Below, one piece after another: positions 2,700 to 16,226 of a stretch of 17,561 bases of DNA (its first letter is position 1; every line of letters starts with the position of its first letter). The stretch is from positions 1 to 17,561 of the forward strand of contig CAKUFG010000038.1 of NCBI GenBank assembly GCA_934647235.1, written 5' to 3'. The notes below the pieces were generated by a model. It searched no databases. It saw only the letters and a program-made list of their open reading frames with translations, and was not told where the DNA came from. The position numbers and the translations under genes were made by a program. The stretch is from an uncultured Clostridia bacterium. Lineage in GTDB: Bacteria; Bacillota; Clostridia; Christensenellales; Aristaeellaceae.

Positions 2700-3835
2700 A
2701 TGCAGGCAAAGCAACTATGCGTTCTGATTCCCTCCCTGGAGCCGGACGAGCGGCTTCCTGTTTATGTAGACGCGCTGCTGGCGGCGGATTTTGGGCAGAT
2801 CGTCATCGTCAACGACGGTTCCTCCGCCCAGTACGATGCGATTTTTGATTCGCTCGCCGCGCGGGAGCGCTGCGTGGTGCTCAAGCACGAGGTCAACCGC
2901 GGCAAGGGCCAGGCGCTGCGCACAGGCGTTGCCTATATCCGCGACCATACCGCCTTTTCAGGCGTGATCACCGCCGACGCGGACGGGCAGCATACGGTGC
3001 ACGATACCCTGCTGCTGGCCGACGCGATGGACGAAAAAAAGCCCGAACTGCTGCTGGGCTCGCGCGATTTTTCGCACAAGAACAAAAACATCCCCGGCCG
3101 CTCCCGCTTTGGCAATCGCGCCACCAGCACGGTATTCGCCCTGCTGTACGGACACTGGCTGCCCGATACGCAGACCGGCCTGCGCGCCGTCAGCCGCGCG
3201 TGCTTTGACGACCTGCTGGCCATCACGGGCGATCGCTTTGAGTATGAAATGAACATGCTCATCTATTTCTCCATCCACAAGATTCCCTTCAAGATCATCC
3301 CCATCGAAACCATTTATCTGGAAGAAAACAAGTCCTCGCACTTCCATCCCCTGCGCGATTCGTGGCGCATCTATAAGCTGCTGCTGGGCTCTTTTCTGCG
3401 CTTTTCGGCTGCGGCCATCGTATCCCTGCTGGTGGATTATGCCGTGTTGAGCCTGCTGATGCTGCTCTGGCACGATATGGATACGATCGTGCTCCCCGTT
3501 TTCGGGCTGCTTTTCAGCGCCAAGGCGCTCATTGCCACGCCCATTGCCCGCCTGTGCTCGGCCCCATGCAATTTCCTGCTGAACAAGAATTTCTCCTTTA
3601 AGGTAAAGGAAAGCCAAGGCGCAGCATGGCGCTATGCCGCGCTTGCCTTGGGCGTGCTGATCGTCACGACCTTGCTCTTTGGCTGGCTGAACCACTTTAT
3701 CCCCGCGCATCATGAGGGGCTGAGCCTGCTGCTCAAGGGCGCCATTGATATTGTGCTCTACTTTGTCAATTACCGCATTCAGCGCAACTGGGTATTCAAG
3801 GAAAAATCCCGCAAAAACGAAACGGAGTGTGCCTG

Positions 3836-3836
<1 letters not shown>
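2700..3836 (+). CDS. Bifunctional family-2 glycosyltransferase (GtrB/CsbB-like polyprenol-phosphate sugar synthase) fused to a GtrA-family membrane domain
   Basis: GT2 motifs are [23 protein letters not shown] and ITADADGQH. Hydrophobic helices follow, carrying [11 protein letters not shown] and [14 protein letters not shown] (GtrA-type signature). AAGGAG lies at 2681-2686. ATG 2700 (13-nt spacing) is preferred over ATG 2688 (1-nt spacing) and over the track TTG at 2652. Confidence 0.8.
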
Positions 3837-5641
<1,805 letters not shown>

Positions 5642-5655
5642 AAGCAATTAACTGC

Positions 5656-6726
5656 ATGGACGCTAAATATCTGGAAAAATTTGATTGGATGGCCCGGCGG
5701 CTGGAGGAGCTTTCCATCGCCGTGGCGCAGCCGGATATCATTGCCGATCTGCCGCGCTGGCAGTCGCTTCTGAGGGAGCGCGCCGCGCTGGAGCCGGCTG
5801 TTTCGGCGTACCGTGATTATCAGAAGCTGACGGGCGAGATTGCCGATGCGCGCGAATTATCCGAGGATCCGGAGCTTGGCGAGACCGCCCGTGAGGAGCT
5901 GAAGCGCCTGGAAGCGCAGGTTCCGCCGCTGGAGCAGGCGCTTTTGCTGCACCTGATTCCCCGCGATCCGGACGATGACCGCAACGTCATCCTGGAGGTG
6001 CGCGCGGGTGCGGGCGGTGATGAAGCCAGCCTGTTCGCCGCCATGCTGGTGCGCATGTATCTGCGCTATGCCGAGCGGCATGGGCTGACCGCCGCCGTGC
6101 TCAGCGTAAACGATACCGAAATCGGCGGGGTCAAGGAGGCCGTGCTCTCAGTCACCGGACGCGGCGCGTTCAGCCGCCTCAAATATGAAAGCGGCGTGCA
6201 CCGCATCCAGCGCGTGCCCGTCACCGAAGCCAACGGCAAAAAGCAAACCTCCACCGCCACCGTGGCCGTGCTGCCTGAAATGGAGGATGTGGAGGTCGAT
6301 ATCAAGCCCGACGATCTGCGCATTGATACCTACCGCGCCTCGGGCCACGGCGGGCAGTACATCAACCGCACGGACAGCGCTGTGCGCATCACCCATCTGC
6401 CCACCGGCCTGGTCGTTACCTGCCAGGATGAAAAGAGCCAGCTCAAGAACCGCGAGCAGGCCATGAAGGTGCTCAAGAGCCGCCTGTACGATCTGTACCG
6501 CACCAAGGCGGACAGCGAGTATGCCAGCAACCGCCGCGCGCAGGTGGGTACGGGCGAGCGCAACGAGCGCATCCGCACCTACAATTTCAACGAGGGCCGC
6601 GTGACCGATCACCGAATCGGGCTGACCCTGTATCGCGTGGACGCCATTGTGGACGGCGATCTGGACGAGATTATCGACGCGCTGACGCTGGACGAGCAGG
6701 CGCGCAGGCTACGGGAGCTGCGTTAA
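5656..6726 (+). CDS. prfA: Peptide chain release factor 1
   Basis: The RF1-type tripeptide anticodon PVT (RVPVTEANGK) and the GGQ motif (SGHGGQYINRTDSAVRITHLPTG) are both present. The ORF is 356 aa. No clear SD precedes ATG 5656, so ATG 5689 (MARRLEEL) is an alternative start. Confidence 0.9.
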   Translation: MDAKYLEKFDWMARRLEELSIAVAQPDIIADLPRWQSLLRERAALEPAVSAYRDYQKLTGEIADARELSEDPELGETAREELKRLEAQVPPLEQALLLHLIPRDPDDDRNVILEVRAGAGGDEASLFAAMLVRMYLRYAERHGLTAAVLSVNDTEIGGVKEAVLSVTGRGAFSRLKYESGVHRIQRVPVTEANGKKQTSTATVAVLPEMEDVEVDIKPDDLRIDTYRASGHGGQYINRTDSAVRITHLPTGLVVTCQDEKSQLKNREQAMKVLKSRLYDLYRTKADSEYASNRRAQVGTGERNERIRTYNFNEGRVTDHRIGLTLYRVDAIVDGDLDEIIDALTLDEQARRLRELR

Positions 6727-6785
6727 AGCCAGGCTCCCGCTTTAGACGCTTTGGGGGAGACGGGGGAACCGGAACGAGGGAAAAC

Positions 6786-6812
6786 GGTACTTTCTTGAGT
6801 CAAGAAAGTACC
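6786..6812. repeat. 27-nt perfect palindrome (13-bp stem), outer hairpin of the left arm
   Basis: GGTACTTTCTTGA g TCAAGAAAGTACC. On the minus strand it is followed by GTTTTCC. Confidence 0.85.
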
Positions 6813-7464
6813 AAAGAACCTGTGTTGTGGACGGGAAAGCTGCTGGTTTTAAGCTGGGAGTGGCCCTGGCCACCCGTGGCAGGGAAAATTCGCGTGTCCG
6901 GATCGGCGCAAGCGCCATCCGTCCCCTTGAATATTTCCCCTTTGGTCTGGCTTCGCCAGCCCTGCGCCGATTGCATCGGCGTGCCACGGGGGCGATGGTT
7001 GTACGCATTTGTCATTCGTAGCTATTTGCGATTGTTGGATAGAGCGGCCATCAAAAGGCTTCTCCTTGAGGAGAGGCTCCGCCGCAGGCGGTGGTGAGGT
7101 GTAGGCCATGCAATGGCCGTTAGCAAAGCTATATAATAGAGGTAACGCCGCTGCGGCGGCTACACCTCATCCGCTTCACTGCGTTCAGCACCTTCCCCTC
7201 CGAGGGGAAGGCTTGGGTGGATGGTCTTGCCGACTGCTGCCAATCGCTACGTTTGTTTTTCGTATCCAACTATGCCCCGTGGCACGCTGATCGCAGATCA
7301 GCGCAGGGCGTGCGCAGCACGATCATGGGGGAAAGCAGGAAACGAACGGAGGAAAGCTTGCTTTCATCCGGGCGGTTCAGGCTTTCACCTGCCACGGTGG
7401 CGGGCGGCAGTGCCGCCTTCCAATTTTATTCCAGCAGCTTTTTTGTCCACAATACCGGTTCTTT

Positions 7465-7491
7465 GTTACTTTCTTCACTGAAGAAAGTAAC
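7465..7491. repeat. 27-nt perfect palindrome (13-bp stem), outer hairpin of the right arm; terminator/attenuator-like on the + strand
   Basis: GTTACTTTCTTCA c TGAAGAAAGTAAC, followed by gTCTTTTCC. It lies 62 nt upstream of the topB SD. Confidence 0.85.
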
Positions 7492-7564
7492 GTCTTTTCC
7501 GTCTCCCTCGTCCCCCCGCGCCATTGAGCGCATTGCCTGTATTATTGAATGCCGAGGTGAAGCC

Positions 7565-9760
7565 ATGATCGTCGTCGTAGCGGAAAAGCCCAGCGTGGGC
7601 CGCGATATTGCCCGCGTGCTGGGCTGCAGAACAGCTGGCGAGGGCTGCCTGTCCGGTGAGGGCTACACCGTCACCTGGGCCGTAGGCCATCTGGTTACGC
7701 TGTGCGAGCCGGATGAAATAGACGAAAAATATAAAAAATGGCGCATGGCCGATCTGCCCATGCTGCCTGAAACCCTGCCCACCAAGGTAATCTCCAAAAC
7801 AAAAAAGCAGTTCACCATCGTCAAAAAGCTGATCAACGCCCCCGATACCGAGCGGCTGATCTGCGCCACCGACGCCGGGCGCGAGGGCGAACTGATCTTC
7901 TACTATATTTATCAGCAGGCCAAGTGCAAAAAGCCCGTCGATCGGCTGTGGATCTCCTCTATGACAGACGAGGCCATCCGCGAGGGCTTCGCCCAGCTCA
8001 AGCCCGACAGCGAGTACGAAGGGCTGCGCAAAAGCGCCGTCTGCCGTTCCGAGGCCGATTGGCTGGTGGGCATGAACGCCAGCCGCGCCTTCACCCTGCG
8101 TTATGACGTGCTGCTGTCCGTCGGCCGGGTGCAAACGCCCACGCTGGCCATCCTGGTTAAGCGCAGGCGAGAAATCGACAGCTTCAAGCCCGAGGAATAC
8201 TATACCGTCACGGCCAATTTCGGCGATTATACCGGCCTGTGGTTTGATGAAAAAGCCCAGGATGAAAAGACCGCTCAGCGCATCGCTGCCCGCGAGCGCG
8301 CGGAGGAAATCGCCCAGGCCGTGCGCAAAAAGCCCGCCACGGTGCGTTCTGCTCAAAGCGAGCTCAAACGCGAGCTGCCGCCGCAGCTGTATGATCTGAC
8401 CTCGCTGCAGCGCGACGCCAACCGCATGCTGGGCTTCACCGCCGATAAAACGCTGAAAATCGCCCAGGCGCTCTACGAAAAGTGGAAGCTGCTCACCTAT
8501 CCCCGCACGGACAGCCGCTATCTGCCCCTGGATATGGTGCCCAAGCTTTACCAGACACTCAAGGCGCTGCCCTCTCCCTACCGCGAGCTGACCGCCGGCA
8601 TGGAGCGCAAGGAGGACGGCAAGCTCTATATTTCAAAACGCATTTTTGATAACAGCAAGGTGTCCGATCACCATGCCCTGCTGCCCACGCCCAAGACGGC
8701 CAATCTGGATCAGCTGCCGCCCGACGAACGCGCGCTGTACGATCTGGTAGTGCGCCGCATGCTGGCCGCCTTCCATCCTGCCTATGAGTACGACGCGCTC
8801 AAGGTGATTACCGATTGCGAAGCCCACGCCTTCCGTTCCACCGGGCGCACGGTGCGCAATCTGGGCTGGAAGGCGCTGTATCAGCAGGATCAGCCCGCCA
8901 GGAAGACCCGCAGCCGTAAAAAGGGAAGCGACGCAGAGGAAGGCGACGAGGGCGCGCTGCCGCCGCTGCAGCCCGGCGATACGCGCACGGTGGAAAAGGC
9001 TGATGTGCAGCAATGCGCCACCAAGCCGCCCGCCCCGCATACGGATGCAAGCCTGCTGGCCGCCATGGAGCACGCGGGCCGCGATATTGAGGACGAGGCG
9101 CTGCGCGAATCGATGAAGGGCGCGGGCCTGGGCACCCCGGCCACGCGCGCGGCGATCATTGAGCGGCTGCTGCAGGTGGGCTATGCCCAGCGCCGGGGCC
9201 GCGCCATCAACGCCACCGATAAGGGCATGCAGCTCATCGCCATTGCGCCGGATGAAATTGCTTCCCCCGAAACCACCGGCAAGTGGGAGCTGGCGCTGGA
9301 TGAAATTGCCCGCAATCAGCGCGATACCCAGCGCTTTATGGAGGGCATCCGCCGCATGAGCGCCTTTCTGGTATCCTATGCGCGCGATAACGCCCCCAAT
9401 GTGGATTTTCCCGAGGACATGAAGCGCGGAAAGCGCGGCGCGCGGCGTTCCTCCGCCATGCCTGTGCTGGCGGATGTGGTATGCCCGCTCTGCGGCAAGC
9501 CTGTGCAGGAGTCGGCCCGCGCCTTTGGCTGCACGGATTGGCGCAACGGCTGCGCCTTTACCCTGTGGAAGGATTGCCTCACCCGCGCCGGAGGGCCGGA
9601 GCTGAACGTCAGGATCGTGCAGCTGCTGCTCAAGAACGGCTCGGTCAAGGGCAGCACCGGCGCCCTGGCCCTGGCGGACGGTTATCTCACCTTTACAAAA
9701 AACGGCGAGGACGCCCCTGCCGCGCGGGTAAATATCCGCTATCAGCGGCCCAATAAATAA
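7565..9760 (+). CDS. topB: DNA topoisomerase III (type IA) with a C-terminal zinc-ribbon region
   Basis: The N-terminus MIVVVAEKPSVGRDIARVLGC (Toprim) and TWAVGHLV are typical of Firmicutes TopB. Cys motifs CPLCGKPV...GCTDWRNGC lie near the C-terminus. GAGGTGA at 7554-7560 sits 4 nt before ATG 7565. The track start at 7217 is an in-frame open stretch running through the repeat. Confidence 0.9.
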   Translation: MIVVVAEKPSVGRDIARVLGCRTAGEGCLSGEGYTVTWAVGHLVTLCEPDEIDEKYKKWRMADLPMLPETLPTKVISKTKKQFTIVKKLINAPDTERLICATDAGREGELIFYYIYQQAKCKKPVDRLWISSMTDEAIREGFAQLKPDSEYEGLRKSAVCRSEADWLVGMNASRAFTLRYDVLLSVGRVQTPTLAILVKRRREIDSFKPEEYYTVTANFGDYTGLWFDEKAQDEKTAQRIAARERAEEIAQAVRKKPATVRSAQSELKRELPPQLYDLTSLQRDANRMLGFTADKTLKIAQALYEKWKLLTYPRTDSRYLPLDMVPKLYQTLKALPSPYRELTAGMERKEDGKLYISKRIFDNSKVSDHHALLPTPKTANLDQLPPDERALYDLVVRRMLAAFHPAYEYDALKVITDCEAHAFRSTGRTVRNLGWKALYQQDQPARKTRSRKKGSDAEEGDEGALPPLQPGDTRTVEKADVQQCATKPPAPHTDASLLAAMEHAGRDIEDEALRESMKGAGLGTPATRAAIIERLLQVGYAQRRGRAINATDKGMQLIAIAPDEIASPETTGKWELALDEIARNQRDTQRFMEGIRRMSAFLVSYARDNAPNVDFPEDMKRGKRGARRSSAMPVLADVVCPLCGKPVQESARAFGCTDWRNGCAFTLWKDCLTRAGGPELNVRIVQLLLKNGSVKGSTGALALADGYLTFTKNGEDAPAARVNIRYQRPNK

Positions 9761-11096: not shown

Positions 11097-11126
11097 TTGA
11101 CTTATAAATCCGCTTCATGCTACAAT
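11097..11126 (+). promoter_or_regulatory. Promoter TTGACT-18 nt-TACAAT
   Basis: TTGACT at 11097-11102 and TACAAT at 11121-11126, about 24 nt upstream of ATG 11150. Confidence 0.5.
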
Positions 11127-11149
11127 ATCAGGACAAGGAGGCGAAAGCA

Positions 11150-11800
11150 ATGAAGCAAAAGCGTTTCGCGGCTTTTCTGATGGCGGCTGTCCTGCTGCTG
11201 TGCGCGGGCAGCGCGCAGGCGCTGGGCAATAAGATGATGGGCAATATCAAATACGGCGTGCCGGTGCCCTATGAGAACCTGGTGTATGGGTATGCGCTGA
11301 ACGTTCATGCGCGCTTTGATATGTACGGCGACGCTGTGATGGAGTACTACCTTAAGCAGCTTGACGAGGAGCAGGATGAGAACGATGATTATATCTATGA
11401 CGCGCGCGTCTGGCGCTCGCCGGATGCTAAATATTTGCTCGAAATCCAGGTGAAGGAGCCCACCTATGAAACCTTTGCGCAGGAGATTGAGAAGGCGCCG
11501 TATTATGCAGAAGAACTGCTGAAAAGGCAGGAGGATACGCAGAAGCAGCAGGTTAAGCAGCTGCACGACGGCATCCTGCGCGATACGCCTGCGGGACAGA
11601 TGCTGGAAATGGCCATATCCTATCTGACGACGGCGGATGACGACAGCACCGTGCCCACCACCGCTGTGTATTATGATTTTTACGCCAACGGCTATGAGTA
11701 TGTTTTTATCCTGACAAGCTTTAACGGCACCTATGAGGATACGCAAAAGCTGCTGGACAGCATCATGCAGACCGTAGCGATCTGGCAGGTGGCTGCGTGA
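11150..11800 (+). CDS. Secreted acidic protein of unknown function
   Basis: Signal peptide MKQKRFAAFLMAAVLLLCAGSAQA with an AxA cleavage site. AAGGAGG at 11135-11141 lies 8 nt before ATG 11150. I recognise no domain. Confidence 0.6.
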   Translation: MKQKRFAAFLMAAVLLLCAGSAQALGNKMMGNIKYGVPVPYENLVYGYALNVHARFDMYGDAVMEYYLKQLDEEQDENDDYIYDARVWRSPDAKYLLEIQVKEPTYETFAQEIEKAPYYAEELLKRQEDTQKQQVKQLHDGILRDTPAGQMLEMAISYLTTADDDSTVPTTAVYYDFYANGYEYVFILTSFNGTYEDTQKLLDSIMQTVAIWQVAA

Positions 11801-15305: not shown

Positions 15306-16226
15306 TCACGGCGTGGACGATTTCTCGCTGTTTTGAAAGTAGGGCGTCAGCAATTGACTATTTGCAGCCCAAGGATGCGTTTTGCACCAGGCTTCAAACA
15401 CTGGTTTCCATTCGGTTAGGTATGCTTCAGCTTCTGCTTGTGAAAGATTTCCACTGAAAAGCTTATCGTATTTAGATATTTGCTCATACCAATCGTCTCC
15501 GTATACTGAATCAAAAAAACTTTGATCTTCTGTAAAGTAAGATGTGTAATCCTGCTGAGCCGGAGTTAGGCTCATGCAGCTGCCGTCATAACCATATGCC
15601 GCCTTCCAGGCTACCGCGCCATTGCTGTAAGCGTATACGATCCAGACGGGGATTTCACCGCTGTTAAAGTGCCGCTCAAACAAGAACTTTGCCTGATAGC
15701 TGAACTTTTCCGGCGCTAAGCCATATTCCGTCGCCATACCATCCTTCATTTTCTCGATAACAGCGCTTTCCTGTATATCGCTGGGCAAAGGCGTTACCTC
15801 TGTGCCACAAAGCATAATATCTTCCGATTCGCCGGCCTCATAGTGAGCGCCATGTGCTTGCCAGTACACCAGATCTCCATTTCGGCTAAGATATAGCAAA
15901 TGAAAGCCTCGGTGTTGACCGTTATATCCAGGAAAGGTTTTTACATGAACCTGCCACTTGGCGGCTTCATCAGCTACGTATACATTCTTTCCGTTAATAT
16001 TCCGCAAGCTCTGATGCTGCAGTAACCGGATATTCATTTGTGCTATCTGAAGTGTTTCAAAAGGGATACCGCACTTCACCGAGAAAAATGCCGCTGCACG
16101 GGCGTGTACTTCTTCTATCGTCAGATCGTCAGGACCTGGTTTGAGCTCTACTTCAGTATCTGCCAATGCGCCTGCCGTCAGGCAAAGCAGCAGAATCGTT
16201 ATCAATAAAACAAGCGTCTTTTTCAT
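15306..16226 (-). CDS. Secreted protein of unknown function, low-GC gene
   Basis: Signal peptide MKKTLVLLITILLLCLTAGALA with an AxA site. AGGAGGA lies 8 nt before ATG 16226. The 306-aa protein appears to contain two similar alpha/beta modules, and I recognise no family. Confidence 0.65.
   Translation of the reverse strand: MKKTLVLLITILLLCLTAGALADTEVELKPGPDDLTIEEVHARAAAFFSVKCGIPFETLQIAQMNIRLLQHQSLRNINGKNVYVADEAAKWQVHVKTFPGYNGQHRGFHLLYLSRNGDLVYWQAHGAHYEAGESEDIMLCGTEVTPLPSDIQESAVIEKMKDGMATEYGLAPEKFSYQAKFLFERHFNSGEIPVWIVYAYSNGAVAWKAAYGYDGSCMSLTPAQQDYTSYFTEDQSFFDSVYGDDWYEQISKYDKLFSGNLSQAEAEAYLTEWKPVFEAWCKTHPWAANSQLLTPYFQNSEKSSTP

Follow-up and report, generated by a model that had tools for sequence, protein, structure and literature searches.

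The 838-bp spacer between prfA and topB in a 17,561-nucleotide stretch of DNA from an uncultured Clostridia bacterium (contig CAKUFG010000038.1 of assembly GCA_934647235.1; the whole stretch is here called the window) is a diverged palindrome of about 780 bp, and is very probably one copy of a dispersed, non-coding and modular palindromic repeat family of gut Clostridia and at least one phage. On the best reading, the element is a non-autonomous repeat resembling repetitive extragenic palindromic (REP) sequences, bacterial interspersed mosaic elements (BIMEs) and MITEs (miniature inverted-repeat transposable elements). The gene annotation of the window places lepA at 3827-5641 and prfA, encoding release factor RF1, at 5656-6726; the type IA topoisomerase gene topB starts at 7565, not at 7566. 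A first-pass annotation had proposed three identities for the spacer, namely a non-autonomous insertion like a MITE or a palindrome-associated transposable element (PATE), a pair of divergently oriented structured non-coding RNA (ncRNA) genes, or a long structured leader of topB, and of these the insertion alone fits the observations. As far as literature searches by string and concept and the databases searched can tell, the family has not been described before.

The palindrome itself is well supported. Local alignment of the reverse complement of 6727-7132 with 7133-7565 scores 129, compared with 19.7 ± 2.6 (maximum 32) for 200 dinucleotide-preserving shuffles; the resemblance of the arms is thus far above chance, and the claim of two inverted hairpin-rich copies at 6752-7518, which had been staked beforehand on a comparison with shuffled controls, stands. 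The arm-to-arm alignment (~6754-7123 and 7142-7518) runs over 395 columns, with 268 identical (68%) and 46 containing gaps, and an independent repeat finder recovers arms at 6781-6876 and 7401-7496 (96 nt, 76% complementary) together with collinear inner pairs. Both blocks singled out earlier are recovered: the reverse complement of 6786-6846 matches 7431-7491 without gaps at 52 of 61 positions, exactly as claimed, and that of 6961-7000 aligns with 7268-7307 with small indels and 35 of 42 columns identical. Because the spacer recurs at 95-100% identity in several independent metagenome assemblies (L001, L002, L004, L005, and L006; L numbers denote the loci compared) and in part in L003 and L007-L010, a foldback or assembly artefact is ruled out. 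The earlier view that the palindrome is not a fresh duplication is right as well, and a sister species (L011) carries a diverged orthologous copy of the spacer. As the first-pass annotation had noted, no transposase, recombinase or reverse transcriptase is encoded among the genes of the 17.5-kb window; further copies of the family were not found elsewhere in the window.

Related sequence occurs widely outside this locus. A metagenome scan, in which loci were picked with one exact motif, gave at least 120 loci, mostly on human-gut contigs with a GC content of 0.48-0.66. In these, a profile of the outer module finds at least 179 terminal modules, many of them at contig ends, and at least 50 near-full-length arms are present among the listed loci. 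Inner arm segments and the centre recur elsewhere at 74-97% identity, and among the loci listed each copy has, outside its tails, flanks unrelated to those of the other copies. Counting the copies in related DNA, a check that had been proposed at the outset, therefore gives more than 100 copies with unrelated flanks, singly and as inverted pairs. The neighbouring genes, read by eye from their translations, are presumably housekeeping genes, among them dnaN, pgk, rsgA, glmM, nagB, ssb, and genes for ribosomal proteins. Beyond the seed match, further elements occur at about one per 25 kb of flanking DNA, a density that the single copy in the 17.5 kb of the window fits. The annotated phage and plasmid collections hold no match to the family.

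The basic unit of the family is a single arm of ~200-390 nt. Arms stand solo or in head-to-head pairs with their tails outward, the pairs sometimes enclosing a three-hairpin centre, and the window element is a long pair. Among the modules of the loci listed, 41 are paired, 31 are solo, and 71 are not scorable. The 22 complete pairs listed measure 165-860 bp, in size classes of ~165, 190-255, 306-370, 495-636, and 730-860 bp, and short forms are without the inner arm altogether. At one locus, two samples carry a 195-nt form and a third sample carries one of 832 nt, with identical flanks and terminal hairpins and with tails that differ by 18 nt, indicating that long forms collapse to short ones (or the reverse) and that tail length changes in steps. 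The arm segments of the window are 94-97% identical to copies elsewhere and ~68-71% identical to each other, and since each arm is far closer to arms elsewhere than to its partner, local inverted duplication is ruled out. Arm types are mosaic between copies, which excludes that the whole unit of left arm, centre and right arm is copied faithfully. On a 2.3-kb contig (L177:645-899), the upstream flank of an L011-type topB is joined via a 255-bp short element to a neighbour other than prfA; either two copies of the element have recombined here, or the assembly is chimeric at the repeat.

From the outside inward, a family arm consists of a tail, a 13-bp terminal hairpin, the motif GGTTCTTTG, a spacer of the form CCAGCAGCTTT..GTC.ACA.CA, a GC hairpin and an inner domain, which in 28 non-redundant arms is closed by CCCCGTGGCA/TGCCACGGGG and holds three hairpins. 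The centre module (~75 nt, three hairpins, an AT-rich loop in the middle one) belongs to long forms only. The core of the terminal hairpin is CTTTCTT/AAGAAAG, preceded on its inner side by GGTTCTTTG (a 7-9-mer including TTCTTTG), a motif present in all four arm copies compared and also in the copies on the viral contig L074. The terminal hairpin is 27-29 nt long with an AT-rich core and is flanked by conserved TTCTTTG (5') and CGT (3'). Tails across the family are tandem CGT(C/T)CCC units, C-rich on the outward strand; in 126 distinct tails, successive CGTs are 8-10 nt apart, the number of units ranges from 1 to 10 and the median tail measures 27.5 nt. Tail length varies widely; L170:86-200, for example, has ~10 tandem CGTTCCC-type units over ~90 nt. 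The canonical (C3+ N1-7)x4 pattern is found in 24 of the 126 tails, so that the complementary strand could form a G-quadruplex. The coordinates of the window element and of the viral copies are collected in Table 1.

Table 1. Parts of the prfA-topB element in the window, and family copies and motif occurrences on viral contigs.
Feature	Position	Strand	Description
Left tail	6752-6785	-	G-rich on + strand; outward on - strand CGT TTTCCCT CGTTCCGGTTCCCC CGTCTCCCCC, degenerate CGT(C/T)CCC-type units
Left terminal hairpin	6786-6812	-	GGTACTTTCTTGA-G-TCAAGAAAGTACC; 13-bp stem with perfect 13-nt arms
Inner-side motif, left	6812-6820	-	CAAAGAACC, reverse complement of GGTTCTTTG
Left outer module	6757-6878	-	GC hairpin GTGGCCCTGGCCAC, then CCAGCAGCTTT..GTCCACAACACAGG, then terminal hairpin and tail; nhmmer to module profile, E = 1.5e-30
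Left inner domain	6873-6992	-	Long-range stem CCCGTGGCA (6873-6881) with TGCCACGGG (6982-6990), smaller hairpins inside; consensus fold of 28 non-redundant arms
Left innermost arm segment	6993-7094	-	Holds hairpin CTTCTCCTTGAGGAGAGG (~7058-7075); collinear with right arm; recurs in L176, L125, L218
Asymmetric centre module	7095-7169	+	Closing stem TGAGGTGTAG (7095-7104) with CTACACCTCA (7160-7169) around three hairpins
Centre hairpins	~7105-7118; 7119-7146; ~7147-7160	+	Inside centre closing stem; AT-rich loop in 7119-7146
Right innermost arm segment	7170-7274	+	Perfect hairpin CCTTCCCCT-CCG-AGGGGAAGG (7191-7211); collinear with left arm
Right inner domain	7275-7397	+	Long-range stem CCCCGTGGCA (7275-7284) with TGCCACGG (7390-7397) around three hairpins; consensus fold of 28 arms
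Right outer module	7397-7522	+	GC hairpin GGCGGCAGTGCCGCC, TTCCA..CCAGCAGCTTT..GTCCACAATACC, GGTTCTTTG (7457-7465), terminal hairpin, tail; nhmmer E = 8.9e-34
Right terminal hairpin	7465-7491	+	GTTACTTTCTTCA-C-TGAAGAAAGTAAC; 13-bp stem; differs from left hairpin only by compensated pairs
Right tail	7492-7518	+	GTCTTTTC CGTCTCCCT CGTCCCCCC
L074 mini-palindrome	L074:6390-6620		230 bp, two outer ends; between neck and tail-terminator genes
L074 solo outer module	L074:10540-10700		Between terminase and portal genes; 90% identical to window 6771-6873 (over 103 nt)
Phage motif examples	L080:4428-4461; L078:1364-1395; L076:7037-7067; L083:11949-11979

The modules of the window element are individually represented at other loci. 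Segments of the left inner domain are 94-97% identical to copies elsewhere (e.g., L166, L202, L146, and L129) and those of the right inner domain 92-96% identical to L146, L218, L205, L228, and L156, and the centre is kept at 79-89% in 11 other loci, with its stem variants compensated. Next to its centre, L011 has ~110 nt of extra sequence, a segment that is itself found in other copies. Of the 13 pairs of the terminal hairpin predicted in the family alignment, 4 have compensatory double changes and almost none is broken (variants are GTTAC/GTAAC, GGTAC/GTACC, GTTTC/GAAAC, and GATTC/GAATC, and the loop-closing pairs vary likewise); over the whole arm, 12 of 36-40 consensus pairs have compensated variants in the 28 non-redundant arms. 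The arms fold better than their own shuffles (z = -5.2 and -4.5). Folding is about equally good on the two strands, and the ratios of G.U to A.C (10:14 and 29:11) give no consistent excess. An intramolecular triplex with TTCTTT as the third strand on AAGAAA/TTTCTT, considered from the mirror repeat, was dropped because three would-be linker base pairs covary and hence are paired.

The history of the insertion can be followed in 63 related topB loci from species-representative genomes. By BLASTN, the element is present at the prfA-topB junction only in L011 (SFIM01000024), whose TopB and RF1 are 98 and 99% identical to those of the window. The comparison of orthologous spacers, suggested earlier as a search for an empty site, brought out short junctions of 15-40 bp: prfA and topB are separated by ~40 bp in L013 (TopB 87%, RF1 91% identical) and by ~15 bp in L052. 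The same flanks thus exist with the element (window, L011) and without it (L013, L052), in different species, which blurs the exact boundaries. The arms of the window and L011 are 88% identical (gaps excluded) and the four-fold degenerate sites of prfA 86%, so that the element has drifted at about the neutral rate. Absence from the nearest outgroups, orthology in both species and near-neutral divergence together place the element in the common ancestor of the window and L011, apparently as an old insertion. What lies between prfA and topB varies within this clade. L012, L014, L017, and L050 (~3540-4000) have a ~460-bp stretch there, which in L012, as in the others, is not the element and reads as an open reading frame (ORF) of ~150 aa; judged from its translation, this may encode a small acetyltransferase. 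In L018, L019, and L047, other genes fill 1.3-2.3 kb between the same two genes. The species of L012 is a different one (TopB 81% identical), and there an outer module lies just downstream of topB (6241-6317) with its tail toward the topB stop codon.

Genes around the copies were called by a codon-usage model trained on the window genes. Of 114 distinct tails, 76 point at the 3' end of a gene that reads toward them and 37 at a gene start, and the stop codon usually lies 3-45 nt from the hairpin. Solo elements are complete arms of 200-390 nt, and in nine of the ten that lie between co-directional genes the tail is next to the stop codon of the upstream gene; the exception is L133, the prfA-topB locus of the sister species, and the L012 copy obeys the rule. 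The asymmetric centre has no clear bias relative to the flanking genes (6 in the same, 3 in the opposite orientation). This placement, and the compensated changes by which the stems are kept, would also be expected of a structural element that the host retains, in the manner of REP and BIME sequences. Its hairpins, just behind stop codons, would then shield or terminate the upstream mRNA, act as insulators between neighbouring genes or be binding sites for nucleoid or topology proteins, and the copy here would serve the 3' end of prfA. REP sequences are placed likewise (PMC3733652). We regard this explanation, which overlaps with that of a dispersed repeat, as possible and hold it tentatively. 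However, the arms have diverged as much as the four-fold degenerate sites, one long-range stem is disrupted in the right arm of L011, and close relatives with the same genes lack the element. There is no U-tract after the hairpin in either direction and the tails are C-rich, unlike in a canonical intrinsic terminator. A replication-strand bias of insertion could equally well lie behind the bias in orientation: genes in these bacteria are expected to be mostly co-oriented with replication, and the solo-arm bias could therefore arise from a role at mRNA 3' ends or from the strand into which copies insert. The convergent-gene cases lie on short contigs, and there the replication and transcription biases are not separable.

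If the spacer is a copy of a mobile repeat, as we prefer, the family would be non-autonomous and would owe its spread to an enzyme acting in trans, one that recognizes the terminal hairpin and its flanks, and the internal modules would be cargo, frequently lost from copies or swapped among them. By analogy with REP/REPIN sequences and with the ends of IS200/IS605 insertion sequences (IS), the movement might proceed through single-stranded DNA, a route that we put forward with reservation. The local effect of the window copy is likely passive, that of a highly structured insert of 780 nt in an otherwise tight prfA-topB junction, and any structural role at mRNA 3' ends would be secondary.

Several points weigh against this picture. 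Among 807 confident ORFs in ~0.79 Mb of family-bearing loci, there is no recurrent or module-bracketed transposase-like protein, one tblastn probe of IS200 type gave only chance-level matches in 1.97 Mb, and direct repeats indicative of a target-site duplication are not evident at 17 complete elements. The metagenome loci were selected with one exact motif, and therefore this set has an invariant hairpin core and CGT by construction and misses members that have diverged; the copy number per genome is extrapolated from contigs. The species with short prfA-topB junctions are 9-13% diverged in protein, and the element may have been deleted in those lineages. Finally, the strong solo-arm bias and the compensated stems could point to selection for a function in the host, and not to an element that is purely selfish.

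Other searches for an enzyme or a parent element gave similar results. Neither TnpA nor TnpB was seen near any copy in the loci examined, and no gene for a REP-associated tyrosine transposase (RAYT; a Y1 HUH transposase) was seen among the 807 ORFs of the family-bearing loci. Outward-facing pairs 2.27 kb apart (L202, L182) enclose one protein, which we take to be an ordinary flavoprotein using flavin mononucleotide or flavin adenine dinucleotide (FMN/FAD). No autonomous parent was found among the loci listed, where the recurrent and bracketed ORFs read as housekeeping genes or as this flavoprotein and include no transposase. As the tails are variable and of low complexity, a target duplication or target motif is not definable.

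The link to phages comes from the outer end, which is highly conserved among the four arm copies: a motif taken from it was found on six viral contigs, one of them L074. This contig encodes the large terminase, portal, major head, neck, tail, and tail terminator proteins, and it carries three family copies (Table 1). The solo copy on L074 points to the start of the downstream gene and so runs counter to the orientation usual for solo arms in bacteria. In its exact form, the combination of TTCTTTG and a CTTTCTT...AAGAAAG hairpin is found at 51 viral loci, compared with 0 and 0 for two composition-matched control patterns. The 51 loci (among them L075-L124, IMG/VR contigs) represent ~20 unrelated sequence families of phages and prophages with a GC content of 0.32-0.66. 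The phage motif has the form TTCTTTG-N-T-N-CTTTCTT-loop-AAGAAAG-N-A, and the homologous loci L076 and L083 differ in it by a compensated stem change (TAC..GTA vs. TGC..GCA). One large prophage cluster among the 51 loci carries AAGTGCGGT, which we recognize as the Haemophilus uptake signal; the string of the phage-wide motif in a Haemophilus-type prophage is TTCTTTGGTTCTTTCTTGCACAAGCAAGAAAGAA.

A broader reading of the same motif is that the terminal signal, TTCTTTG 5' of the CTTTCTT...AAGAAAG hairpin, is a site recognized by something shared across phyla, that the Clostridia family is built round it, and that the CGT(C/T)CCC tails are made or extended by mobilization and not by slippage. We consider this unlikely; were it true, the recognizing factor would be either a widespread and so far unrecognized enzyme acting on single-stranded DNA or the conserved host transcription machinery. 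The terminal hairpin common to phages of distant hosts is in any case an unexplained lead. The terminal module, GGUUCUUUG plus hairpin, was also considered as a candidate antitermination signal like nut or the boxA of rrn operons, which would be read in transcripts running out of the element to the gene that follows. In common with the E. coli rrn boxA UGCUCUUUA (PMC2724277), GGUUCUUUG has G and UCUUU, and it matches a conserved primer site in the mollicute spacer, GTTCTTTGAAAACT (PMC3019172). Motif and hairpin recur in phages of very different hosts; some copies lie just upstream of an ORF on the same strand, those of L074 upstream of the genes for the portal and the tail terminator, and the matched control patterns found nothing. 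However, nine of the ten bacterial solo arms between co-directional genes carry the motif antisense to the genes around them, two thirds of all tails face gene ends and not starts, and the resemblance to the E. coli rrn boxA is partial (6 of 9 positions), which makes an antitermination signal highly improbable.

Still less probable are two divergently transcribed, paralogous structured ncRNA genes of ~360 nt each, with promoters in the centre and the outer hairpins as terminators. The outer hairpins do score as outward-facing, terminator-like sites, a TATAAT is present in the centre at 7132-7137, and the arms have the folding scores and compensated stems described above. However, a promoter scan of the region gave 0 sigma-70-like sites, the two terminator-like sites are no excess over shuffles (1.2 ± 1.2), and the tails are C-rich instead of U-rich. 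The TATAAT is not conserved in L011 or other copies. The equal folding of the two strands, the arms that occur singly, the short forms that lack the inner arm, the near-neutral divergence and a centre free of orientation constraint likewise argue against RNA genes, for which promoters and terminators of their own, strand-specific structure and purifying selection would be the marks. Nor is there a known RNA family in the spacer, in agreement with the first-pass annotation: at gathering thresholds Rfam (HEARO included) gives nothing and under permissive settings only chance-level matches (E ≥ 0.26), and element-rich loci elsewhere are also without a match. A structured leader or regulatory region specific to topB, to which the position directly upstream of the gene might point (47 nt separate the end of the right hairpin and tail from the start codon), is refuted by the comparison of sequences, since species with a 79-87% identical TopB lack the element, the same modules adjoin many unrelated genes and the L012 copy is downstream of topB.

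The window element encodes nothing. Coding arms were considered and rejected: the mirror ORFs 6742-7008(-) and 7221-7481(+) have a weak BLASTP match, read as Arg/Pro-rich junk and are broken or frameshifted in L011. The string TGGCACGCTGATCGCA at 7280-7295 is close to the sigma-54 promoter consensus (TGGCACG-N4-TTGCW). A sigma-54 site was nevertheless rejected, as the string is part of the right arm's long-range stem, the spacing is shifted in the left arm and the GG is lost in the right arm of L011; the resemblance is probably coincidental. Just before the left tail, a small hairpin, GGGAGC-TGCGTTAAAGCCAG-GCTCCC (6712-6739), spans the prfA stop codon, and its Rfam match to sX12 is at chance level only (E = 3.3). 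ARAGORN finds no tRNA or tmRNA. Elsewhere in the window, two ORFs with good coding signal and without a Pfam domain, 11117-11800 (+, 227 aa) and 15306-16226 (-, 306 aa), are unrelated to the palindrome.

Several known systems resemble the family in part. BOX elements of Streptococcus pneumoniae are modular intergenic repeats of a Firmicute, with partly complementary end modules in the direct order A-Bn-C, a stable fold and an unknown way of spreading. They share with the family the modularity, the variable internal modules and the stable fold, and differ in their unrelated sequence and in having neither a nested palindrome nor microsatellite-like tails. MITEs (including Correia/NEMIS, RUP, bcr1, and MITEAba12) are likewise non-coding, with terminal inverted repeats, many copies in unrelated flanks, presence/absence variation and no enzyme of their own. 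Terminal inverted repeats, the lack of coding and dispersed copies were all found here; in contrast to MITEs, no target duplication was seen and no parent IS with matching ends was found, the inverted repeat covers the whole element, and single arms are common as complete units. The subterminal hairpins of IS200/IS605 ends and PATEs, acting on single-stranded DNA, would fit the hairpin with its short motif, the missing target duplication and the orientation bias. However, IS200/IS605 ends are not inverted repeats of each other, whereas the arms of the element are, and nothing marks the element as a PATE or an omega-RNA remnant, as there is no Rfam hit, no TnpA-like hit and no match in annotated phages or plasmids.

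There is also a likeness to REP, REPIN and BIME sequences of Enterobacteria and Pseudomonas, which are high-copy intergenic hairpins, single or in head-to-head pairs with the capacity for larger folds (Bertels and Rainey, 2011; Di Nocera et al., 2013, PMC3733652). Shared with these are the enrichment at gene 3' ends, between co-directional or convergent genes, the mosaic composition, a short motif beside the stem and compensated stems, and inverted doublets are common here with singlets present (the 41 paired and 31 solo modules scored). However, a REP unit has 20-40 nt, whereas the arm of 200-390 nt with its nested hairpins is ~10 times longer, and, unlike REP, the pairs reach 860 bp, can hold a conserved asymmetric centre and end in variable tandem tails of 8-10-nt units. 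REP sequences have a 5' GTAG or CGTC tag, an 8-9-bp stem and a CCA tail, while in the element CGT stands 3' of a 13-bp stem; the short GC-rich hairpin with an unpaired 5' GTAG or CGTC tag that defines REP sequences is not what is found here. The CGTC-tagged REP superfamily combines 8-9-bp stems and a 5' tag with head-to-head dimers, a preference for gene 3' ends and no known dedicated transposase (PMC3733652), and the survey of tagged REPs makes no mention of Firmicutes or Clostridia. We treat this superfamily as an analogue and not as the element's own family.

For the annotation of gut Clostridia, the family means that hairpin-rich, conserved-looking spacers in metagenome-assembled genomes are not to be read as riboswitches, leaders or ncRNAs before a census of repeats has been made. 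Since many copies sit at contig ends, the family probably breaks contigs in these organisms, and it may also cause chimeric joins, given that L177 connects topB to a different neighbour via a short element. As a REP/BIME-like system in Firmicutes, the family is unusual in its long nested arms, pairs of up to 860 bp, microsatellite-like tails, solo-arm orientation rule and presence in phage, and it offers a new lineage in which the old problem of the spread of such repeats can be tested.

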